Position numbers and translations under genes: made by a program. A stretch of DNA of 41,279 nt from an uncultured Bacteroidia bacterium (GTDB lineage: Bacteria; Bacteroidota; Bacteroidia; Bacteroidales; UBA932). Positions 18,291 to 28,343 of the stretch are shown in pieces (positions within the stretch are counted from its first letter, which is position 1; the number at the start of each line of letters is the position of its first letter). Where the stretch lies: positions 1 to 41,279 of the forward strand of contig CACXHG010000145.1 in assembly GCA_902767355.1 (NCBI GenBank), in the 5' to 3' direction. Under the pieces are notes generated by a model, which saw only the letters and a program-made list of their open reading frames with translations, was not told the origin of the DNA and made no database searches.

Positions 18291-19277
18291 TTATTCCCCC
18301 GTGTAAAGCGTGGCTTCCCAAGAGAGGACTTCTCCGGGAATGGTCCACGACGCAGGGGTCATCACCGTCACGAAGCCCAGGCCGCCGGAAACGTTTTCCG
18401 GATATATGACAGGTTCTGTCATAAATTCCAGATCGATTCCGTCCCCGTCTTGGGCTTTGACATACATGAATTCGTCAAAGCTGATGGAATACACCTGGAT
18501 CACGGTGTCTATGGCATAGAGGTCGCCGTCTTCCAGATTGGCAAAGAAGTCGTTCCAGTCATTGTAGCGGATAGCATAGCCCTGTTCTACATTGAGCGTG
18601 CAGGTGCCGCCCGCGAACATCTCGTCTGAAAAGAGATTGAAATAATTCGAGATGCTCAAAAATTCCGAGGCCTGGTCGCCTATGGGATTGAGCAGTTTGT
18701 CTTTGCTGCCGTCAAGGTGAATAGGACCCCGTATGCTCGCCAGGGTATTGCCGTCCGCATCCAGTTTCCGGGCCAGCTGATAAGCGGCGAGCATATAGTA
18801 GTCTTTCTGGCCGGCTTGGTCACGAACGCTTATAGCATATTTTGTGACGGGCTGCTTCCCGACATAGTCGGGGGTGCTGTTGTCCATTTCCCGCTTTGTT
18901 TCGACAGCGGTGATTTCGGCAGCGCTTTGCGGCACAATGGCTTCTGCACTGGCTCTAAGGTCGCGCCAGCTGGCCTGCAGGGCGATTTTGTCACCCGGCT
19001 TTAAGTCCGCATCGAACACATAGCCATAGTCTCCATATTCTATGGTCACGGGCGCCGACCCGTTCACGCTGTAGCTCAGGCGGGCATCTTCCAAATAATT
19101 GCAACCGGCGCCTTCGCTGCAATAAATCTGCACGCGATGGCGCGTTTCGTCTTGCTTTAGCTGCGCACACAGCACCAGCACAGGATTGTTGGTGTCTCGC
19201 CAGAGAATCTCCACGTCGTTTTCGCAGGAAGTGAGAGTCAGCAGGGTGGCCAGTGCGGCATATATGGTCTTTTTCAT
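18291..19277 (-). CDS. DUF4249-like lipoprotein (partner of the upstream TonB-dependent receptor)
   Basis: 328 aa; lipoprotein signal (LLTLTSC). Lies immediately downstream of a CarboxypepD_reg-type TonB-dependent receptor, the usual DUF4249 context. The family call is by context and recollection. Confidence 0.65.
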   Translation of the reverse strand: MKKTIYAALATLLTLTSCENDVEILWRDTNNPVLVLCAQLKQDETRHRVQIYCSEGAGCNYLEDARLSYSVNGSAPVTIEYGDYGYVFDADLKPGDKIALQASWRDLRASAEAIVPQSAAEITAVETKREMDNSTPDYVGKQPVTKYAISVRDQAGQKDYYMLAAYQLARKLDADGNTLASIRGPIHLDGSKDKLLNPIGDQASEFLSISNYFNLFSDEMFAGGTCTLNVEQGYAIRYNDWNDFFANLEDGDLYAIDTVIQVYSISFDEFMYVKAQDGDGIDLEFMTEPVIYPENVSGGLGFVTVMTPASWTIPGEVLSWEATLYTGE

Positions 19278-19282
19278 ATCCG

Positions 19283-21748
19283 TCAGAATTTATAAGTATA
19301 GCTGAAAGATGGGAGTATGGGCAGCACCGTCACCTTCTTGACACCGAGGCCCTCACGCTTTTGAGTGTGGCCTTCGTCCCATTTTGTGATATTTTCCGTA
19401 TAGACAAAATCCGGGTTCATATTGTTGTACACATTATAGATACTTATGTTCCAGATTCTCTCGCCGTGGCGCTTTTGCTTGCGGAAATTGATGCCCAGAT
19501 TCAGGGTGTGCGAAGGCGGCAGCCGGTAGTTGCCGCGCGAGGTGACATAAGTCGGTATCTGCGAATAGTATTCCGGAGAAATTACCGCAAACCTACGGGT
19601 GGACAGGGTCGTGACGCCGCCGGTGAAGAACTTCCAGCTGCCGGAGATGTCTATGCGGTTCGAGAACTTGTGATTGACCACCAGGCTTATATCGTGCCGG
19701 CGATCGTATTTGAAGGGGAACCAGGCCCCGCGGTTGATGGTCCCGTCGGGGAAGCAGCGTTCGCTCTTGGCCAGCGTATAGCCCAGCCAGCCGGTGGTGG
19801 CGCCCATAGTCTTCTGCACGAAAAACTCCATTCCGTAGGCGCGGCCACGCCCCATCGCCACCTTGTCTTCCCAGCCGGTGGAGGTAATCAGCACGGACAT
19901 ACCGTCTTTGTACTCCAGCACATTATTCATTGCCTTATAATAGCCTTCCAGCGAGATTTCCCAGCCGCCGGCGCCTTTCCAGTAGGTTCCCAGCGAAACC
20001 TGGTCGGCAATTTCGGGCTTGATGTCGCGGGTGATGGGCACCCAGAGGTCGGTGGGGAGCGATATGTCGGTGGACGAGAGCAGATGCACATATTGCGACA
20101 TACGGGCGTAGGAGGCCTTTATGCTGACCCCGCCGCCGACATCGACCCTGCCCGAGAAGCGCGGCTGCAGGGATGCGTAGGTCTTGCCCTGGGTGTTGAA
20201 GACGCCCAGGTGCAGGCCGGGGTTAAAGGACAGCCTCTGCCCTATCACAAAGTCGTCCTCTACATAGAGGTTAACCTCGTGGCCAGGCAGCGGCTTGCCG
20301 GAGGCCATATTCATGGTGGTGTCTATCCAGGTCTTTTCGCCTTCGGTCTGCTTTTGAGAGAGCGTGGCGGTCTGGGGGCGGAAATTGTGATAGACATATT
20401 CCGCTCCGAACTTGACAAGATGCTCGGGGACAGGATTATAGTCAAAGTCTATCTTGAAGTCGATGTCGTTTATGCCCGAGTCGTAGGTAACTCCCATTAT
20501 CTCCCGCGTCTGTTCTTCCTTCTCTTTATGATAGAGATCGCTTGCAACATCGACGTCCATCTCGTAGTGATTGTAGGCCAGGGTCGTATTGGCAAACAAC
20601 TTGCTGCCGAAGGCGTGGTTCCAGCGCAGGGCCGCCACGGTGTTGCCCCAGTCCAGATTCATTTTGGCGGTTTCCCTGCGGATTACATCTTTGTCGGTGC
20701 CCTTGTAGTTGTCTATCCAGCTTTGTGAGCCGCCCCCATCGCCATAATCGTAGCCATAACCATCATCGGTGCGCATCAGAAAGCGGTCGCGGCCGTGATA
20801 GACGGTGGCAATCAGGCGGTCGCCATTGACAAACCGGTGGGTTATCTTGCCGTTCATGTCGTAGAAATAGTAGTTGGCCGGCACGTCCTTGAGCTTGAGC
20901 AGCGGCGTGAACAGGAAGGTGTGCAGCACGCGGGCGCTTATGCTGTAGGATGTCTGTCCATATACAATCGGGCCCTCCAGATGGAAGCGGTCCGAGAGCA
21001 TTCCCACGCTGACAAGGCCGTGAGTCTCTTTCGCATTGCCGTCGTTGGTGCGCACGTCTATCACCGACGACAGGCGGCCGCCGTAGCGGGCGGGGAAAGA
21101 GCCCTTGAACAGGGTCACCTTCTTGACCGCCTCGGGGGTGAACACCGAGAAGATGCCCAGCATATGACTCACGTTGTAAAGGGGTATGTCGTCCAGCAGA
21201 ATCAAGTTCTCGTCGGGGCCGCCGCCGCGCACATAAATGCCGGAAGTGCCGGTAGTTCCGCCCTGAACGCCCGGCAGATACTGAAGCGACTTGAGCACAT
21301 CCTTCTCCCCGAACAGGGCCGGCATACTCTCCAGTGCATACTCCGGCACCTCCACCGCGCCGGTGTTCGTAGAGTTGATACCTGCCTCCTTACGGGCCGT
21401 TACCACCGCCTCCTTTATGGCGGCCGAAGGGCTGAGGGCGATGTTTATCACCGTGTCGCGCCTCAAGTCTATTGTCTGGGTCTGTTCGGCATAACCTATA
21501 TAAGACCAGGTCAGCGAACGCTCCCCGGCGGGGAGACTCAGGGTATAGAATCCGTAATTGTTGGCCACCGCGCCCACCAGGGGGGCTTTAGGGTCGGGGT
21601 TGTTATACACCACGCCAGCGCCGATGAGCATCTCGCCACTGCCGGCATCGCTGATATAGCCGCTCACCGTGACCTTCTGCGCCTTGGCTGTCAGCGACAC
21701 GAGCGCCGCCACCGCCGTCATCATCATTACTTTCAATATCTTCTTCAT
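19283..21748 (-). CDS. TonB-dependent outer membrane receptor with N-terminal carboxypeptidase-regulatory-like domain
   Basis: I prefer the start MKKILKVMMMTAVAALVSLTAKAQ (ATG 21748). The upstream 48 codons in the track run into a repeated non-coding module. Plug motif (VLKSLQYLPGVQGG..GIYVRGGGPDENLILLDDIPLYN); the barrel ends in an aromatic residue (SYTYKF). Confidence 0.92.
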   Translation of the reverse strand: MKKILKVMMMTAVAALVSLTAKAQKVTVSGYISDAGSGEMLIGAGVVYNNPDPKAPLVGAVANNYGFYTLSLPAGERSLTWSYIGYAEQTQTIDLRRDTVINIALSPSAAIKEAVVTARKEAGINSTNTGAVEVPEYALESMPALFGEKDVLKSLQYLPGVQGGTTGTSGIYVRGGGPDENLILLDDIPLYNVSHMLGIFSVFTPEAVKKVTLFKGSFPARYGGRLSSVIDVRTNDGNAKETHGLVSVGMLSDRFHLEGPIVYGQTSYSISARVLHTFLFTPLLKLKDVPANYYFYDMNGKITHRFVNGDRLIATVYHGRDRFLMRTDDGYGYDYGDGGGSQSWIDNYKGTDKDVIRRETAKMNLDWGNTVAALRWNHAFGSKLFANTTLAYNHYEMDVDVASDLYHKEKEEQTREIMGVTYDSGINDIDFKIDFDYNPVPEHLVKFGAEYVYHNFRPQTATLSQKQTEGEKTWIDTTMNMASGKPLPGHEVNLYVEDDFVIGQRLSFNPGLHLGVFNTQGKTYASLQPRFSGRVDVGGGVSIKASYARMSQYVHLLSSTDISLPTDLWVPITRDIKPEIADQVSLGTYWKGAGGWEISLEGYYKAMNNVLEYKDGMSVLITSTGWEDKVAMGRGRAYGMEFFVQKTMGATTGWLGYTLAKSERCFPDGTINRGAWFPFKYDRRHDISLVVNHKFSNRIDISGSWKFFTGGVTTLSTRRFAVISPEYYSQIPTYVTSRGNYRLPPSHTLNLGINFRKQKRHGERIWNISIYNVYNNMNPDFVYTENITKWDEGHTQKREGLGVKKVTVLPILPSFSYTYKF

Positions 21749-21839
21749 ACTCCTCTCAAATGCAAAAGGGGCGCAAATATAACACCTTCGCACGAAATAG
21801 CTTACCGCCTGCGGCCGTTTTGCTTTCGCGCCGTTTCGC

Positions 21840-22048
21840 CGAACTGTTGCGACTGTTCCCGGAGTCTCTTCCCCGGCCCGCAACACAGTCATCCCCGGCC
21901 CCCCCCTAAATCTCCTTCAACCCGAAAAATGTCGCCTTCAGAGCGAAAAATGTCGGGTTCGCGGTTTTTCGCTTTTTCTCCGGATTATTTGTATATATGT
22001 TTGCGGCCGAGTTTCATTCTGAATATAGTTTTTTAAGAAGACAGAAAT
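21840..22048 (+). repeat. promoter module copy A (upstream of lipoprotein P1)
   Basis: Nearly identical to 27835-28041 (inverted) and to 24184-24350. Contains an inverted repeat TGTTGCG/CGCAACA (21845-21885), a C8 tract (21899-21906), a direct-repeat pair, and a TAtgTTTG -7 box (21996-22003). Confidence 0.9.
21923..21955 (+). promoter_or_regulatory. paired direct repeats CGAAAAATGTCG-N9-CGAAAAATGTCG (candidate LytTR box)
   Basis: Exact 12-mers at 21923-21934 and 21944-21955, a 21-bp period. The proximal repeat ends 40 bp upstream of the -7 box. Confidence 0.6.
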
Positions 22049-22720
22049 ATGAATAGTAGAATCATACAATTATTTGCTGCCATCGGGTGCGTAGCAATCT
22101 TTGCCTCATCATGCATTCCACAATATGAAAAGGTGGAAAATGACCCATATGAGGCCATATACCGCGTCGAAGACATTAATGCTGAGATTATTTTTCATCA
22201 GTTATTTATCCGCCCGCTGATAGGTGAGAAAGATGAAGCTTTCGATGCCGAAAGCAGATCTTTCTACAGCAGTGTGGATACTTCGCTCTGTTTTACGGGG
22301 AAAGTGCCATATACGGCTTTTAACGGAGGTTATCGCCCCGTCTTGTCTGCCGTAGACTGGCGGATTTCGAAGATGGATGTTATTACGCTTGAGGATTTTG
22401 ATGCAGCTCACCCTGCCGGATCATCACTTATGGATCTTTGTGAGCTATGGTATGAATATAAGCATAGCGATATCATCGGCCCTCTCAAAGATGTCTATCT
22501 CAATCCGTTAATGCTCACAGACTACGATCCTTGGAATAAGGGTCACCACGAAATACTTAAAATCGAGTTACATTCTTCTGCAGATAAAATACCACCGAGA
22601 GCAGAGTATCCGCACTATAAGAAACGCGACTATGACAGCAAGGATCTAACGAACTTTCCAGCTGTCGAGGTTCGTATCACCGACTCTTTCGGCCGCGAAT
22701 TCATAAAGCGGGTGGAATAA
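22049..22720 (+). CDS. small lipoprotein P1, unknown function (paralog of 27163-27834)
   Basis: 223 aa; signal peptide with lipobox (IFASSC). Homologous over its full length to the 223-aa product of 27163-27834. I recognise no family. Confidence 0.85.
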   Translation: MNSRIIQLFAAIGCVAIFASSCIPQYEKVENDPYEAIYRVEDINAEIIFHQLFIRPLIGEKDEAFDAESRSFYSSVDTSLCFTGKVPYTAFNGGYRPVLSAVDWRISKMDVITLEDFDAAHPAGSSLMDLCELWYEYKHSDIIGPLKDVYLNPLMLTDYDPWNKGHHEILKIELHSSADKIPPRAEYPHYKKRDYDSKDLTNFPAVEVRITDSFGREFIKRVE

Positions 22721-22741
22721 TAAGCAACAAAAAGTTTATAC

Positions 22742-22778
22742 AGCGGAGCTGGCCTATCGTGGCGGCTCCGCTTTTTTT
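22742..22778 (+). terminator. rho-independent terminator of P1
   Basis: Stem AGCGGAGC (22742-22749) pairs with GCTCCGCT (22765-22772), followed by a T run. The same sequence recurs inverted at 27104-27141. Confidence 0.75.
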
Positions 22779-22813
22779 GCAATATGCTTAACGCCAACGT
22801 GGCGAAGAACTTA

Positions 22814-23158
22814 TCAGGCAAATTGATTTGACATCAAATATTCCTTGAGCATAGGAAGGTCTTTCTTGAGGATCTCCCATATTGTATTCATATCCACATT
22901 GTAGTAGTCGTGGACAAGAATATGCCTTAATCCCGCTATTGCTTCCCAATCAATCTCGGGATGCGCTGCCACGAAGGCCCTTGAGAGCATATAGGAGCCT
23001 TCTCCAATGCACTGAAGATTATAGATGACGGCGTGGCACAATAACTTGTTTGATGTAAAATCTTCGCTGGAGTTCACCCCCGAGAGGAATTCTTCTATGT
23101 TGGCGACAGCTTCTTTCATCAGCTCCAGCCGGGCGGTGTCATTGACTTTATCTCGCAT
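22814..23158 (-). CDS. hepT: HepT-like (DUF86/HEPN) toxin of a HepT-MNT toxin-antitoxin pair
   Basis: 114 aa; Rx4HxY HEPN motif (RHILVHDY). Overlaps the upstream nucleotidyltransferase gene by 11 nt. Confidence 0.85.
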   Translation of the reverse strand: MRDKVNDTARLELMKEAVANIEEFLSGVNSSEDFTSNKLLCHAVIYNLQCIGEGSYMLSRAFVAAHPEIDWEAIAGLRHILVHDYYNVDMNTIWEILKKDLPMLKEYLMSNQFA

Positions 23159-24101
23159 AAATCAGATACTTGTCCCGTTCTGCGGATGGGATTGCGAATG
23201 GCTTGAGTGAACCATTAGTGACAAGGTCAACCTCTCGCCCGATAGAGCGCTCCATATCAAGCTTATATCTTATAATATCCAGCAGCGATACGTGCGCCTG
23301 GCGGTCGTAATCCACAAGCAGATCCAGATCACTTGAATCATTCTCTTCCCCTCGGGCAAAAGAGCCGAATACCCACGCCTTAACCACAGGAGTTGACGAC
23401 AGGAAACCCTGAATTTTTGAGAACATTTCAATTCGGTGCATATCAAGCGAAGACAGGCGATGGTGCAATTCTTCGCAAACGCCGCGCCTTGCCGCATAAC
23501 GGTTCAATTTGTTGCGATTGACAGGATACACTTCCATCATCTTCTGGTAGTGACGTTTAAGATAATCCTCTGACACATTCTTGCGGCAAAGCAGGTCCAC
23601 CAAATCTTTCTCCAATGACGGGAGCACGATGTCTCCTTCTTCAATCAACGGCGCTTCTGTCACTCGCGGGCCAACAATTATGTACCCTTCAATACGTGCC
23701 GGAAATTGTTCTGCAGAATGCTTGTCCACAACTTTGTATCCATGTGAATCAAGACATTCGACTATTCTGGGAATGTCGCCTTTGTAGGTCTCTATATACA
23801 GATTTGCATCCCTTTCACACAGGCAATGGTCAATGCCGATACATTCGTCTATCAGCAAATCGTTAACTTCACGCATCCAAGGTGTGATGTCCGGCAGATA
23901 TTTAGGTTTGTGCACGGGAATATACCTGCCTCGGCCGACCCTGGAAACGCGCCCGGCCAGGCAGAGAGCGCGAATCTTGGAGTACACGGTTGCAGCAGGT
24001 TTGTCGCCGCACACAGACATAAAATCTTCTGTGCACAGCTCCCGGCCTTGCGCAAGCAGACACTCTATTTCGCTTCCTAAGTGCATCGCTTCGTTTTTCA
24101 T
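23148..24101 (-). CDS. MNT-type nucleotidyltransferase antitoxin fused to a long wHTH/AbiEi-like N-terminal region
   Basis: The C-terminus carries the GSx10DxD minimal nucleotidyltransferase motif (GSFARGEENDSSDLDLLVDY). The N-terminal ~230 aa has a wHTH-like segment (ATVYSKIRALCLAGRVSRVGRGRYIP). I prefer the ATG at 24101 (MKNEAMHLG). The track ORF starts 10 codons earlier at a TTG (24131) that lies inside a palindrome. Confidence 0.8.
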   Translation of the reverse strand: MKNEAMHLGSEIECLLAQGRELCTEDFMSVCGDKPAATVYSKIRALCLAGRVSRVGRGRYIPVHKPKYLPDITPWMREVNDLLIDECIGIDHCLCERDANLYIETYKGDIPRIVECLDSHGYKVVDKHSAEQFPARIEGYIIVGPRVTEAPLIEEGDIVLPSLEKDLVDLLCRKNVSEDYLKRHYQKMMEVYPVNRNKLNRYAARRGVCEELHHRLSSLDMHRIEMFSKIQGFLSSTPVVKAWVFGSFARGEENDSSDLDLLVDYDRQAHVSLLDIIRYKLDMERSIGREVDLVTNGSLKPFAIPSAERDKYLIYAR

Positions 24102-24118
24102 TTCGGGTGCAATATATA

Positions 24119-24157
24119 AATAATTCGGCAAAATACAATTATAATTGCCGAATTATT
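24119..24157. promoter_or_regulatory. perfect 13-N13-13 palindrome, candidate operator of the MNT-HepT operon
   Basis: AATAATTCGGCAA (24119-24131) and TTGCCGAATTATT (24145-24157) are exact reverse complements. The element lies 18-56 bp upstream of the ATG at 24101. Confidence 0.5.
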
Positions 24158-24183
24158 AAAACTGGTGCCGTCATTCGCCCCCT

Positions 24184-24365
24184 TTGTTGCGACCGTTCCC
24201 GGAGTCTCTTCCCCGACCCGCAACACAATCATCCCCGAGCCCCCAAAAACACCTTCAATCCGAAAAATGTCGCCTTCAGAGCGAAAAATGTCGGGTTCGC
24301 GGTTTTTCGCTTTTTCTCAGGGTTTTTTGTATATATGTTTGCGGCTAGATTACTAGAACACGGAA
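24184..24365 (+). repeat. promoter module copy B (upstream of lipoprotein P2)
   Basis: Same module as copy A: inverted repeat TGTTGCG/CGCAACA (24185-24225), C5 tract, direct-repeat pair, TAtgTTTG (24334-24341). The 5-prime UTR after about 24346 differs from copies A and C. Confidence 0.9.
24261..24293 (+). promoter_or_regulatory. paired direct repeats CGAAAAATGTCG-N9-CGAAAAATGTCG (candidate LytTR box)
   Basis: Exact 12-mers at 24261-24272 and 24282-24293. The proximal repeat ends 40 bp upstream of the -7 box. Confidence 0.6.
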
Positions 24366-24995
24366 ATGAAAAGGTTCATATTTGTTTTTCTCGCCGCTGT
24401 ACTATGCTCATGTGGGGAACACATTGGTTCTGCCAAGTACTATTCAAAGGACATTATTGGGTGGTACAAGTGCACTGTTGCAGAATGGATGCACCCTATG
24501 GCTATAGATATCAACAACGATGGAGTTGTAGGGCGAGACCTAATGAGTGAAGTAGAGAGCATAACCATGGCCGATATAGCTCTGAAAAGGATACCCGTAA
24601 GGATAACTGATATAAATGGGTTTGATACACCTTCGGACTATATCTACGTGCAAGTCCCTCACCAAGGCCTATTCTACGAGGAATCGTCAGATACTTATAT
24701 ACCTGGGCTAACGACAGATTTCTTTTATTTTTATTTTACGTATTCCATTGACACTAATGGTGATATCCGCATATCTCGACCGGTTGTCGAAGATTTGGGC
24801 CTTAGCTATGTACAGTTGCCGGGAAATAAGGATGTCAATATCAATCAGCTTGGTAATAATGTCCTTGATTATACAATTATTACCACTTTTTATGACTTTA
24901 ATTCGCAGCGCTTTGTGACCGGCCCGGTACATTATCGCTATGAGAGGATATATAGTGATCCATACGAGACTAGTTGGAAGACGCTGGTAAAATAG
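24366..24995 (+). CDS. small lipoprotein P2, unknown function
   Basis: 209 aa; lipoprotein signal (FLAAVLCSC). Unrelated in sequence to P1 and P3. Contains two D-x-N-x-D-G-like loops (DINNDGVVGRD, DTNGDIRIS). Confidence 0.8.
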   Translation: MKRFIFVFLAAVLCSCGEHIGSAKYYSKDIIGWYKCTVAEWMHPMAIDINNDGVVGRDLMSEVESITMADIALKRIPVRITDINGFDTPSDYIYVQVPHQGLFYEESSDTYIPGLTTDFFYFYFTYSIDTNGDIRISRPVVEDLGLSYVQLPGNKDVNINQLGNNVLDYTIITTFYDFNSQRFVTGPVHYRYERIYSDPYETSWKTLVK

Positions 24996-25018
24996 ATGCA
25001 TCCTTACATATTTGCTAA

Positions 25019-25054
25019 CGTGGGGCAGCCCGTTTTGGCAGCCTCACGTTTTTT
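25019..25054 (+). terminator. probable rho-independent terminator of P2
   Basis: Imperfect stem CGTGGGGCAGCC (25019-25030) pairs with GGCAGCCTCACG (25037-25048) at 10 of 12 positions, followed by T6 (25049-25054). Confidence 0.6.
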
Positions 25055-25127
25055 GAATGTTGCTGCTGATGTGACGTTGCCTGAATCTGGCAGTCGATAT
25101 TTCAAGATCCTGCCCGCCGTTTCAACC

Positions 25128-25219
25128 CGAAAAATGTCGCCTTCAGCGCGAAAAATGTTGCCTTCGCGGGGTGCGGAAATCTCCGGGTTTGTACGGGGCT
25201 GACAAAAACGGTATATTTG
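25128..25219 (+). promoter_or_regulatory. promoter of the kinase/regulator operon with its own direct-repeat pair
   Basis: CGAAAAATGTCG (25128-25139) and CGAAAAATGTTG (25149-25160) are 21 bp apart. A consensus -7 box TAtaTTTG (25212-25219) lies 51 bp downstream, and the ATG is at 25240. Confidence 0.6.
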
Positions 25220-25239
25220 TCCGACAGGAGCAGTGCGCA

Positions 25240-26349
25240 ATGGGCATCAACATTTTCAACACATATAAGACCACCAGGCGCGAGATGCACATGCGGCATC
25301 TCGGACTGATAGCCCTGGCCGTGGTTTTCAGCTGGGTGCTGTGGGTTATCGTGGACTATCCGGAGTATTCCACGCTTCACGGTAAAGCTCTGGTGCTGGA
25401 ATTGCTCAAACAGTTCGGCGAACAGCTTGTAGAGACTACGATTCTGCTGGAGATATCCTTGCTGTACATCAAAGGCATCGTCCGCTTTTTCTGGGACAAG
25501 GAGAAGAATCTTAAGAACCTCATTATCCAGGTGATGATTCTGGCAGTGCTCAACGGCTTCTCATCGGTGATGATGGGCCTTCTCTACCGGCAATTATACC
25601 CCGCAAAAGAGCGCATCTTCGCGCAGATAGCCTTTACGGATTATCTTAGTCTCTCAGTGCTGACCACAGCCTATTTGGTCATCTTCCTTATCAACCGCTA
25701 TCGAGACGAGATGGATGCTCACCTTGAGGCGGAGCGCAAACTCAAGGAAGAGGAGAATATCCGCCTGAAAGCGCAATTGAAAAACCTGTCGCTTCAGACC
25801 GACAATCACTTCGTTTTCAATAGCTTGAGTACGCTCGCCAGCCTCATCAAAACATCACCGGAAGATGCGGGCGCCTTTGTGGTTGATTTCTCCAGTATGT
25901 ACAGATATCTGGTTACAAACGGAGCCAGGGACATCGTTTCGCTAAAAGACGAACTCGCGTTTGCGGGCGATTACATTGAGCTGCTAAAGTACCGCTACAG
26001 CGGCGTCAGTGTGATCATAGATGCCTCGCTCTCCGCTATTCACGGCTATGCCAGTCCTGCGGCCATTGAGGGCCTGATAGAGAACGCCGTAAAGCATAAC
26101 CGGCACGGCAAAGATGACACCCTGCGCATTGAGATAAAGAAAGACGGGGACTACATAGTAGTATCCAACAACATTTTACCTATAGCAGGCGAAAGCCGCA
26201 CCACTGGCACCGGACTGGCCACACTCAGGGATAGGTATCTCATGCTGTGCGGCAAGCCGGTGACAGTGTTGAACGACGGTGCAACCTTCACCGTCACACT
26301 TCCGATTATGTATGAGGAGGACCTGAAAGATGAAAGTATTGATTATTGA
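25240..26349 (+). CDS. LytS/YehU-type sensor histidine kinase (His_kinase PF06580-like)
   Basis: I prefer the start MGINIFN (25240), just downstream of the -7 box. About four N-terminal TM helices with short loops, a coiled coil, an H-box (HFVFNSLSTLASLI) and an N-box (IENAVKHN). Confidence 0.88.
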   Translation: MGINIFNTYKTTRREMHMRHLGLIALAVVFSWVLWVIVDYPEYSTLHGKALVLELLKQFGEQLVETTILLEISLLYIKGIVRFFWDKEKNLKNLIIQVMILAVLNGFSSVMMGLLYRQLYPAKERIFAQIAFTDYLSLSVLTTAYLVIFLINRYRDEMDAHLEAERKLKEEENIRLKAQLKNLSLQTDNHFVFNSLSTLASLIKTSPEDAGAFVVDFSSMYRYLVTNGARDIVSLKDELAFAGDYIELLKYRYSGVSVIIDASLSAIHGYASPAAIEGLIENAVKHNRHGKDDTLRIEIKKDGDYIVVSNNILPIAGESRTTGTGLATLRDRYLMLCGKPVTVLNDGATFTVTLPIMYEEDLKDESIDY

Positions 26350-27088
26350 GGATGAGGCTCATATTGCAGCCGCGATGAAAGCGCTGCTGAAGAAGTTGCG
26401 GCCGGAGGCAGAAATAGTGGGTGTGACCACCAACATAAGCGACTCGCGCCGGATGATAGAATCGCACCCGGACCTGGATATAATCTTCTCCGACATAAGG
26501 ATAGACGACGGCCTGTCTTTCACGATATTCGAGAGCGTTAAGACTGAGGCGATGATTGTCTTTACCACCGCCTATAACGAATATGCGCTCAAGGCATTTG
26601 ACTTTCATTGCGTGGATTACCTCCTAAAGCCCGTCACAGAAAAGACGCTGGAGGTGACACTTCTCAAATGCGAATCCCGCACCGCCAGAATAGATAACGC
26701 TGTCATTAGGGCCATCACAGAAGAAATCCTCAGCCGCAGCGTCCGCTACCGCCAGCGTATCCTGCTTCATGTCGGCCGAGAAACCAGCATCTGGCCTGTG
26801 TCCAGAATAAGCTATATAACGACGGAAAAAGGCGTGACAAGTGCCTTTTTGGACAACGGTCAGGCCGGGATAGTAAACTACTCCATCACAGATTTGGCCG
26901 AGAGCTTGCCACCTGAGACATTCCTGCGCATCAACCGCCAGGCCATAGTGAACATAGGCAGCATTGCAAAGCTATCACGTGGCGATAGTCGCGAAAACAC
27001 CCTTACACTTGCAGAGCCTTACTCTGGCATAACATTCCCCATCAGCCAGGAAAAGAAGAAGCAGCTGCAGGAATTGCTGGACAGGTAA
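26330..27088 (+). CDS. LytR/AlgR-family response regulator (REC + LytTR DNA-binding domain)
   Basis: 252 aa; REC domain (MKVLIIEDE...IIFSDIRIDDG) and LytTR domain (ISYITTEKGVTSAFLDNGQ...FLRINRQAIVNIGSI). Overlaps the kinase gene by 20 nt. Confidence 0.92.
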   Translation: MKVLIIEDEAHIAAAMKALLKKLRPEAEIVGVTTNISDSRRMIESHPDLDIIFSDIRIDDGLSFTIFESVKTEAMIVFTTAYNEYALKAFDFHCVDYLLKPVTEKTLEVTLLKCESRTARIDNAVIRAITEEILSRSVRYRQRILLHVGRETSIWPVSRISYITTEKGVTSAFLDNGQAGIVNYSITDLAESLPPETFLRINRQAIVNIGSIAKLSRGDSRENTLTLAEPYSGITFPISQEKKKQLQELLDR

Positions 27089-27103
27089 TGCAGGTATGCA
27101 ATG

Positions 27104-27141
27104 CAAAAAAAGCGGAGCCGCCACGCTAGGTCAGCTCCGCT
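27104..27141 (-). terminator. rho-independent terminator of P3 (inverted copy of the P1 terminator)
   Basis: Stem AGCGGAGC (27111-27118) pairs with GCTCCGCT (27134-27141). The plus-strand A run at 27104-27110 is a T run on the minus strand. It differs from the 22742-22778 copy only at 2 loop positions. Confidence 0.75.
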
Positions 27142-27162
27142 GTATAAACTTTTTGTTGCTTA

Positions 27163-27834
27163 TTATTCCACACTCTTTATGAATTCGCGGCCGAAAGCGT
27201 CGGTGATACGGACTTCTACCGGCGGGAAAGGGGTCGTATTATTCCTCTGATATGCAAATTTTTTATACTCAGGATATTCTTTCTTAGGGTGATTATCTTC
27301 TGATCTTTTGAATAGACATATGCTAAACCCACCAACAGTAGTACTACTCCAACTGTATGGGTAGTAATCTGTGAGCATTGCTGTGCCATAAGTCAGATCT
27401 TCCAATGGTCTTAATATGTATGAATGCTTATACTCGTACCAGACCTGACATAAATCGTTAATAGAAGAACCTGCCTTATGTGCATCATCGTAATCATCAA
27501 GTGTAATTATATCAACATCACACAGTCGCCAATCTACAGCGCACCAGCATGACCGGGACATCGTGGCGGAAGTTAAAGCGGGTCTTTTCCCCGAATAAGT
27601 CAAGTTAGTATCGATAGCTTTATAGAATCGTCGGCTGTCGGAGTCATATTCTTCATTGTAATCAGCGAGATTGCCGTTGATATTAATCCTATCGTCCCCA
27701 ATATCTATGCTTATATCCTCAACCCTATATATACGCGAATACGGTTCACCAACTACGGCCTCTGTTGTCTTTACACATGATTGAAGAAATAAAACGAACA
27801 TGGCCAATGTTATCATTGAAAGAACTCTATTCAT
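27163..27834 (-). CDS. small lipoprotein P3, unknown function (paralog of 22049-22720)
   Basis: 223 aa; lipobox (LFLQSC). Shares blocks with P1: YRVEDI, AVDWR, ITL-D-D-AH-AGSS, DLC--WYEYKHS, MLTDY, VEVRITD-FGREFIK-VE. Confidence 0.85.
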   Translation of the reverse strand: MNRVLSMITLAMFVLFLQSCVKTTEAVVGEPYSRIYRVEDISIDIGDDRININGNLADYNEEYDSDSRRFYKAIDTNLTYSGKRPALTSATMSRSCWCAVDWRLCDVDIITLDDYDDAHKAGSSINDLCQVWYEYKHSYILRPLEDLTYGTAMLTDYYPYSWSSTTVGGFSICLFKRSEDNHPKKEYPEYKKFAYQRNNTTPFPPVEVRITDAFGREFIKSVE

Positions 27835-28041
27835 ATTTCTGCCTCCTTAAAAAACTATATTCAGAATGAAATTCGGCCGCAAACATATATACAAAAAAAC
27901 CGGAGAAAAAGCGAAAAACCGCGAACCCGACATTTTTCGCTCTGAAGGCGACATTTTTCGGGTTGAACGGGGGGTGGGTGGTTCGGGGATGACTGTGTTG
28001 CGGGCCGGGGAAGAGACTCCGGGAACGGGCGCAACAGTTCG
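27835..28041 (-). repeat. promoter module copy C (upstream of lipoprotein P3, inverted orientation)
   Basis: Its reverse complement aligns with 21840-22048, apart from an ~18-bp variable patch and a few substitutions. Inverted repeat arms at 27996-28002 and 28030-28036; -7 box at 27887-27880 (minus). Confidence 0.9.
27928..27960 (-). promoter_or_regulatory. paired direct repeats CGAAAAATGTCG-N9-CGAAAAATGTCG (candidate LytTR box)
   Basis: Exact 12-mers on the minus strand at 27960-27949 and 27939-27928. The proximal repeat ends 40 bp upstream of the -7 box. Confidence 0.6.
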
Positions 28042-28343
28042 CCAAAGTGGCGTCAAGGCGATGTGCCCCAGAGGAATCTCAGAGGGGGATTGGCTTGGCG
28101 CCATAGGCCAAAATCGGGCTCTGGCGACAAGCGGATCACGGCCGTAGGCCCTTCTGGCGCAGGTGGGTTTGACGCCACCTTGGCAGATCTGGGAGCCGGT
28201 GAGCGTTTCGCGGCTCCACGCTCACGGGAGGCGACGGCGAGGCACGCCGGTGAGTAAACCGCGGCCATACGCTCACCGGGGGCGAGTGTGGGTGCAGCGA
28301 GCCACGGCCGGCCAAACGATGCCGGTGGGAGCGCCCCCCTGCC

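Follow-up and report, generated by a model that had tools for sequence, protein, structure and literature searches.

Why should two genes in inverted orientation be almost identical at both ends and strongly diverged in their interiors? This question is raised by positions 21,840 to 28,041 of a 41,279-nucleotide (nt) stretch of DNA (the window; contig CACXHG010000145.1 of assembly GCA_902767355.1), in which a 6-kb, low-GC, strain-variable island has housekeeping genes on either side. The DNA is from an uncultured Bacteroidales bacterium of the ruminant gut. The two genes, P1 and P3, encode predicted lipoproteins and bracket a segment containing a third lipoprotein gene (P2) and the genes of a two-component system. 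The locus is likely a small LytTR regulon, whose shared promoter and terminator modules explain the alike ends and act as recombination handles. The two-component system encoded between P1 and P3 probably controls the promoters of both genes, of P2 and of its own kinase operon. The 5' ends of P1 and P3 would be alike because both genes carry the same regulated promoter and leader, the interiors diverged because the genes are ancient paralogues under purifying selection, and the 3' ends alike through ongoing homogenisation by recombination or gene conversion. The genes concerned are the following (aa, amino acids).

22049..22720, plus strand: P1, predicted lipoprotein of 223 aa with a signal peptide ending ...ASSC
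24366..24995, plus strand: P2, predicted lipoprotein of 209 aa
25240..26349, plus strand: sensor histidine kinase of the LytS/YehU type (PF06580, 8.6e-18)
26330..27088, plus strand: response regulator with receiver and LytTR DNA-binding domains (PF04397, 1.3e-15; PF00072, 2.8e-11)
27163..27834, minus strand: P3, predicted lipoprotein of 223 aa, a paralogue of P1 with 44% aa identity

Identity profile and promoter modules

The original prediction, made from the sequence letters, described the two ends as inverted copies, and a repeat finder recovered them independently. Promoter-side arms were found at 21916-22056 and 27827-27967 (141 nt, 96%), outer promoter-side arms at 21822-21905 and 27976-28059 (86%), and terminator-side arms at 22603-22781 and 27102-27280, with 4320 nt between the last two. 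The coding sequences (CDS) of P1 and P3 are both 672 nt long including the stop codon and encode 223 aa, as had been stated. In global alignments, their interiors show 58.8% nucleotide and 44% aa identity, which bears out the claimed divergence, and the sequences immediately outside the arms show 48-50% identity. The upstream 209 nt, which had been called almost identical, are alike at 91.0% (193 matches, 13 mismatches and 6 gap columns), with 96.2% identity in the proximal 133 nt. The last 55 nt of the CDS, described in the same way, are 89.1% identical, and near-identity really begins at codon 208 (~22670). The 63 nt after the stop codon are 95.2% identical and contain three mismatches instead of the two previously counted; two of the three are located in the terminator loop. 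A sliding-window profile of nucleotide identity, which had been proposed as a check, shows sharp steps at ~22050 and ~22660, i.e., the divergence is not uniform. The mosaic pattern is therefore real and far beyond chance.

The mirror-image pair is real but not unique. A third copy of the upstream module is present at 24185-24345 (plus strand) before P2 and is 87-88% identical to the other two, and a fourth copy, comprising the core only, is present at 25121-25169 (plus strand) before the kinase operon. The shared upstream sequence is a regulatory module that also stands before P2 and the kinase/LytTR operon, which had been overlooked. Its presence at these sites explains most of the 5' conservation and makes the segment between the two cassettes the candidate source of their regulator. 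The promoter features are as follows.

21845..22009, plus strand: promoter module copy 1 (P1), with CGAAAAATGTCG boxes at 21923-21934 and 21944-21955 and the -7 box TATGTTTG at 21996-22003
22010..22048, plus strand: 5' leader (GAGTTTCATTCTGAATATAGTTTTTTAAGAAGACAGAAAT), common to P1 and P3 only
24185..24347, plus strand: promoter module copy 2 (P2), with boxes at 24261-24272 and 24282-24293 and the -7 box at 24334-24341
25121..25219, plus strand: kinase-operon promoter, with boxes at 25128-25139 and 25149-25160 and the -7 box TATATTTG at 25212-25219
27835..28036, minus strand: promoter module copy 3 and 5' leader (P3), with boxes at 27949-27960 and 27928-27939 and the -7 box at 27880-27887

The full promoter module of ~165 nt precedes P1, P2 and P3, and the kinase operon has only a 49-nt core, which lies at 21916-21964 in copy 1. 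This core contains two 12-nt CGAAAAATGTCG boxes, 21 nt from start to start, laid out as two TTCA-N3-CGAAAAATGTCG-N2 units with a 21-nt period. The two-box pattern has four matches in the window versus none expected, all four in this locus, and Tandem Repeats Finder independently reported two copies of period 21 at each of these sites. Every two-box site lies upstream of a TAnnTTTG box, which is the -7 promoter consensus of Bacteroides (PMC4747536); a sigma-70 consensus scan is uninformative for Bacteroidetes. All three cargo promoters have a gap of 40 nt between the boxes and the -7 box. In the kinase promoter this gap measures 51 nt, so that the -7 box lies 11 nt, approximately one helical turn, farther from the boxes. 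With the start assumed to be about 5-6 nt past the -7 box, transcription of P1 is predicted to begin at ~22009. Relative to the predicted starts, the proximal box is centred at ~-59 (~-70 at the kinase promoter) and the distal box of the cargo promoters at ~-80.

An alignment of 24 module copies from the window and related metagenome contigs is near-invariant from TTCAAC through the boxes to TATGTTTGCGGCC, and its distal 85 nt vary freely. In modules that carry different cargo, similarity ends ~6 nt past the -7 box, at the predicted start, after which the leader is cargo-specific. The cargo types found behind the module are P1/P3, P2, a C10 peptidase, a 155-aa lipoprotein and one further unknown gene. 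The P1/P3 leader is the insertion place of the C10 peptidase gene in some strains (a loose end lies at 22035 in contig X4).

Multiple copies and sharp boundaries would also be expected of a small mobile or repetitive element, similar to a miniature inverted-repeat transposable element (MITE) or repetitive extragenic palindrome (REP), that had landed by chance beside these genes. Such an origin is extremely improbable. All copies are located in one locus, in constant orientation to the downstream gene, and end at the predicted start. A search of 185,579 species-representative genomes for the module and box pattern gave no match, and the three JGI metagenome contigs with the box pattern all belong to this locus. 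No folding was seen in the distal module part (z -0.56), and an Rfam search of the locus found no structured RNA. The absence from representative genomes and the restriction of the JGI matches to this locus mark the module as a locus-specific promoter, not a dispersed element.

The two-component system and its candidate operator

The sensor kinase has approximately four N-terminal transmembrane segments, as judged by eye, and lacks a large external domain. BtsR was the best NCBIfam match, below its cut-off. LytTR sites typically consist of two 9-11-nt repeats located 11-13 nt apart, including those of the LytS/LytTR-type regulator YpdB (PMC4847170), AgrA sites are found near -60 (PMC4227749), and autoregulation via such repeats has been documented (PMC6193735). 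Each of the four promoters has two copies of a 9-nt core, GAAAAATGT, with 12 nt between them, which fits the geometry of LytTR sites.

In the proposed mechanism, the membrane kinase would phosphorylate the LytTR response regulator, and the repeats at ~-59 and ~-80 would form the operator of a Bacteroidetes promoter that is weak and has a -7 box of the TAnnTTTG type. The operator before the kinase operon itself would lead to positive autoregulation, and the operator inside the portable promoter module would drive three separately terminated lipoprotein genes. The exact runs shared by the arms (68 nt on the promoter side and 40 nt on the terminator side) would be the substrates for general homologous recombination, which, across strains, would have inverted the inner segment, swapped the bodies of P1 and P3, deleted cargo and let in new cargo.

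Comparable loci are known from Firmicutes, namely pneumococcal blp (BlpR/BlpH), Lactobacillus plantarum pln and staphylococcal agr P2/P3. These loci also contain an operon of a kinase and a LytTR regulator, with paired direct repeats of 21-22-nt period before the promoter of the regulator and before neighbouring operons (PMC4517551, PMC4227749, PMC6193735), and their cargo is likewise strain-variable and mosaic. The present locus differs from them in its Bacteroidales host and its -7/-33-type promoter, with a regulation that is predicted from sequence. It has a LytS/YehU kinase (PF06580) instead of the peptide-sensing HPK10 type, lacks pheromone and bacteriocin genes as well as an ABC exporter, and carries lipoproteins as cargo, plus a C10 peptidase in some strains. 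The Escherichia coli systems YpdA/YpdB and BtsS/BtsR belong to the same kinase and regulator families, and the binding site of YpdB is a 10-nt motif repeated directly across an 11-nt spacer (PMC4847170). Each of these systems serves pyruvate sensing and one transporter gene, whereas several lipoprotein targets and apparent autoregulation are predicted here. To our knowledge, LytTR two-component systems are abundant in Bacteroidales, and their operators and targets are essentially uncharacterised. The locus provides a precise 49-nt operator candidate, in four copies and with a defined target set, which is directly testable.

Terminator modules, strain arrangements and selection

The 3' ends of P1 and P3 are also built from a shared module.

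22670..22783, plus strand: 3' module copy 1 (P1), comprising the last 16 codons and the terminator, with the hairpin GCGGAGCYG...CGGCTCCGC at ~22742-22772 followed by T7
27100..27213, minus strand: 3' module copy 2 (P3), comprising the last 16 codons of P3 and the terminator

The Rho-independent terminators of P1 and P3 have predicted energies of -25.2 and -26.2 kcal/mol, respectively (z -4.1), and end in T7. P2 has a different terminator of its own (~25017-25055). Since each gene has its own promoter and terminator, the three genes are separate transcription units beside the kinase operon. Conservation of the C-terminal peptide VEVRITDxFGR extends throughout the protein family. The proportions of synonymous (pS) and nonsynonymous (pN) differences between P1 and P3 are 0.78 and 0.41 in codons 4-207, and 0.18 and 0.05 in codons 208-223, respectively. 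Because near-identity extends to synonymous sites and to the non-coding terminator, protein constraint is insufficient to explain the 3' ends. The variants of the terminator loop are strain-specific and common to both copies within a strain (the window has CCTA[T/G]CG, the 'swapped' strains described below have CCCAATG); this sharing is typical of concerted evolution, although it involves few sites. That gene conversion homogenises the ends, one of two explanations put forward in the original prediction, is supported by the drop of pS from 0.78 to 0.18 and with the shared loop variants. The ends are probably kept alike by operator and promoter constraint together with recombination or gene conversion.

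The locus was found in metagenomes of bovine, sheep and goat gut. Strain loci on metagenome contigs (L and X numbers), whose flanks are 98% identical across contigs, were compared with the window, and the following arrangements were distinguished.

Type A (window): TonB-dependent receptor (TBDR); P1 rightward; HepT and MNT leftward; P2, histidine kinase (HK) and response regulator (RR) rightward; P3 leftward; IspD
Type A' (L013-L016, X13; L002): order as in type A, but the bodies of P1 and P3 have traded slots
Type B (L007-L012): inner segment (window 22744-27219) inverted, with breakpoints in the terminator arms
Type C, minimal (L001, X16, X17): TBDR; HK and RR; P1 leftward; IspD
Further variants: TBDR, a P2 allele and HK (L031); another cargo gene next to RR (L029)

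The type A junction between P1 and HepT is also present in L030, X2, X4, X29, X30 and X32. The evidence for type A' is that P3 adjoins HepT in L013-L016 and X13, and that P1 adjoins the response regulator gene in L002; L002 and L015 are from one sample. In the sequencing runs that contain the locus, the available Logan contigs end at the repeats. The comparison among strains that had been suggested as a test of cassette swapping thus revealed an exchange of the P1 and P3 bodies between slots. In type B, the C10 peptidase gene lies between the promoter and a P1-like gene (P1b), the P2 allele is different and the 155-aa lipoprotein gene occupies the P3 slot; X7 is a variant of this type without a gene in the P3 slot. 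The original prediction that the inverted ends could mediate rearrangement is supported by L007/L008 and X7, in which window segment 22744-27219 is inverted.

The exact shared runs of 68 and 40 nt in the arms are long enough for RecA-type recombination. Inversion could also be programmed and reversible, as in the phase variation of shufflons or invertons, with the arms serving as recombinase sites that switch the lipoprotein. Inverted repeats do bracket the segment, the segment occurs in both orientations among strains, and Bacteroidales are rich in invertible regions (PMC4747536, PMC8748976). Programmed phase variation is nevertheless very unlikely, because no recombinase gene was found and inversion would not change expression. 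The search covered the sizeable open reading frames (ORFs) of the 41-kb window and the called genes of the related loci, none of which has a recombinase domain; a trans-acting recombinase is possible. Promoter and terminator would move with each gene, so that orientation leaves expression unchanged. Within the island, sequence differences of 2-10% separate the isomers, which are therefore old lineages rather than recent flips within a clone, and the arms are 110-210 nt of general homology instead of short recombinase sites. Since no arrangement separates a gene from its own promoter or terminator, the rearrangements would be neutral by-products and not a switch; inversion and cassette exchange are best read as occasional homologous recombination.

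The arrangements resemble inversions mediated by ribosomal RNA operons (rrn) or insertion sequences (IS) in that breakpoints fall in 110-210-nt repeats with 40-68-nt exact runs and that inversion, swap and deletion isomers occur. Unlike in those cases, the repeats here are the promoter and terminator modules of the proposed regulon, so that rearrangements are predicted to be expression-neutral. The locus suggests that, in a core-genome region of a gut commensal, the handles for recombination can be repeated regulatory modules instead of mobile elements. Such handles would allow inversion, cargo exchange and allele replacement.

The second explanation originally offered was diversifying selection on the exposed body of the lipoproteins. 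For P1 versus P3, dS is saturated, dN is 0.54 and dN/dS is formally ~0.19, a value that is uninformative through saturation and leaves room for ancient episodic selection. Close alleles have dN/dS values of 0.09-0.27. Between P1 and P1b of L007, pS is 0.024 in codons 23-120, whereas codons 121-207 have a pS of 0.525 and a pN of 0.082 (pN/pS ~0.16), a profile that identifies P1b as an intragenic mosaic. P2 alleles of different strains have diverged bodies (pS 0.84, pN 0.34) and identical last 44 codons (pS 0.036).

Diversifying or balancing selection of the variable antigen or immunity type, with ends that are simply constrained, would fit the coexistence of deeply diverged P1/P3 and P2 alleles among close strains whose flanks are 98% identical, as well as the mosaic P1b and the polymorphic cargo of the island. 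It is nonetheless an unlikely account of the locus. Values well below 1 were obtained wherever dN/dS is measurable, namely for the close alleles and the diverged P1b part, and the P1 versus P3 comparison is saturated. Conserved motifs are found throughout the body, and protein constraint does not account for the near-identity of the synonymous sites and the terminator. Diversifying selection was accordingly not borne out by these values, and balancing selection may have maintained old alleles. The gene bodies appear to be old alleles and paralogues that were shuffled by recombination under purifying selection.

Several observations weigh against a regulon of the adjacent LytTR protein with recombining modules. 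A small palindrome, TCGC-N7-GCGA, is located in the spacer between the boxes and could be used by a different regulator. Orthologous two-component systems at 54-56% identity (L032-L037) have no clear CGAAAAATGT pairs, and specificity may differ at that distance. A search for RNA runs that contain the locus found none. The case for gene conversion comes from few sites, i.e., the drop in pS and three loop positions, which are linked. The strain loci all come from metagenome contigs, in which repeats can cause chimeric joins; the key adjacencies were each seen in 3-7 independent assemblies. The adjacency of the response regulator gene and P3 in the window had no support from independent contigs.

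The palindrome and the absence of boxes at the orthologous systems favour the alternative that the boxes are real operators of some other regulator, or a repressor site. The 21-nt direct-repeat geometry and the position near -60 fit LytTR sites (PMC4847170, PMC4227749), and the sites were found nowhere but around this two-component system, whose own promoter carries one. Control by another regulator is therefore considered unlikely, and the adjacent LytTR protein remains the preferred candidate.

Lipoprotein cargo and neighbouring genes

The lipobox Ser-Cys at positions 21-22 is invariant across the P1/P3 family, and P2 and the other cargo genes have lipoboxes of the form ...CSC or ...PSC; both were judged by eye. 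The P1/P3 family comprises 12 clusters at 90% identity, and, at an E-value limit of 1e-10, a profile search yielded 52 representatives, with ~50 clusters when grouped at 50% identity. Members outside this species were located only in metagenome-assembled genomes (MAGs) of uncultured Bacteroidales and Muribaculaceae. An upstream scan of distant P1-family genes for 21-nt-spaced repeats gave nothing convincing. No Pfam or NCBIfam model matched the family, and its profile had no match among the Protein Data Bank (PDB) sequences. The AlphaFold (AF2) model is confident (pLDDT 82.8, pTM 0.76) and mostly beta-strand, and matched no PDB fold with E below 0.09. P2 is a near-orphan with three clusters. 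It was tried as a relative of P1 and rejected, as sequence comparison shows no relation. A relative of P2 with 26% identity is present in L036, where it is colinear with the TonB-dependent receptor, DUF4249, kinase and regulator genes. Searches for a function of P1/P3 and P2 gave no Pfam, NCBIfam, PDB sequence or fold match.

The last 25-30 residues of the P1 family match repeatedly in giant proteins secreted by the type IX secretion system (T9SS), P0056, P0060, P0063 and P0066. These proteins have 1155-2842 aa, a CHU_C domain and SdrD_B or carboxypeptidase-regulatory-like repeats. On account of these matches, the P1 C-terminus may be a beta-sandwich strand pair of the SdrD_B-like kind.

A gene encoding a C10 cysteine-peptidase lipoprotein is associated with some members of the family, at the following positions.

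L007, 8557-10675: C10 peptidase lipoprotein gene
L023, 7118-9160: C10 peptidase lipoprotein gene
L032, 3253-4781: C10 peptidase lipoprotein gene

In L007-L012 and X4, the C10 gene overlaps the start of P1b by 8 nt. In L023, a distant MAG, a C10 gene 39% identical to that of type B is followed 13 nt on by a P1-family gene (P0010-type) that is 38% identical to P1. The adjacency involves P1b and the L023 gene, and neither P1 and P3 of the window nor six other family loci show it; the C10 gene is absent from the window strain. In L032, a kinase/LytTR pair (56% identity) lies beside a C10 gene and a small lipoprotein gene on a conjugative element with TraG and type IV secretion system (T4SS) genes. 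The 139-aa lipoprotein beside this C10 gene was considered as a P1 relative and rejected as unrelated.

In Bacteroides, the bfp genes for C10 peptidases share transcripts with genes for small lipoprotein inhibitors and reside on variable elements (PMC2873492). The pairing of a C10 gene with a P1-family gene in L007-L012, X4 and L023 resembles this bfp/bfi arrangement. It differs in that the P1 family is dissimilar to the staphostatin-like Bfi inhibitors (PDB fold and profile searches found no resemblance in sequence or fold to the lipocalin-like barrel of staphostatins), that the window strain lacks C10 and that inhibition is only putative here. By analogy, P1/P3 might be a new class of C10-peptidase lipoprotein partner, for example an inhibitor or 'immunity' protein, whose two orphan, deeply diverged copies in the window strain would protect against the peptidases of neighbours under an envelope-sensing LytTR system; this proposal is speculative and doubtful. 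If true, the island would be a polymorphic protease/anti-protease competition locus in rumen Bacteroidales, similar to LytTR-controlled bacteriocin-immunity regions. The repeated association of C10 peptidase genes with P1-family genes is the first functional lead for this unannotated lipoprotein family.

The GC content of the island (21900-27900) is 40-52%, compared with 58-69% in the flanking housekeeping genes, and the island looks like foreign or fast-turnover DNA within a core region. The flanking genes include ribosomal protein genes and those encoding SecY, RadA, TopA, penicillin-binding proteins (PBPs), MreBCD, PurH, IspD, GcvP and Lgt. The island also contains a HepT/MNT toxin-antitoxin pair, a passenger that is absent from some strains.

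22814-23158, minus strand: HepT of the HepT/MNT pair
23148-24131, minus strand: MNT nucleotidyltransferase, antitoxin-type, with a long N-terminal DUF6577 domain

A TonB-dependent receptor/DUF4249 pair (18291-21750, minus strand) borders the island and shows 79-93% identity among strains, compared with 98% for its outer flanks. In another species (L036), a colinear block contains this pair, an orthologous kinase/LytTR pair and a P2-like gene. Owing to this colinearity, the TonB-dependent receptor/DUF4249 pair of the window may belong functionally with the two-component system. Long ORFs (up to 491 aa) run antisense to the TonB-dependent receptor, PurH and other genes (e.g., 19253-22036, plus strand); these were rejected as genes, being artefacts of high GC content.

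A GC-rich non-coding piece of ~150 nt is located upstream of the P3 promoter module (window 28038-28191). The same piece is present in inverted orientation beside the TonB-dependent receptor gene in L007 (8172-8321) and L001 (12763-12913), and the outer inverted repeat is therefore longer in those strains. Downstream of ispD, window positions 28195-28285 contain two tandem GC-rich hairpin units (GCCGGTGAGCG...CGCTCACSGG) with 51-nt spacing, and a 51-nt difference in the copy number of these units was observed in run X2.

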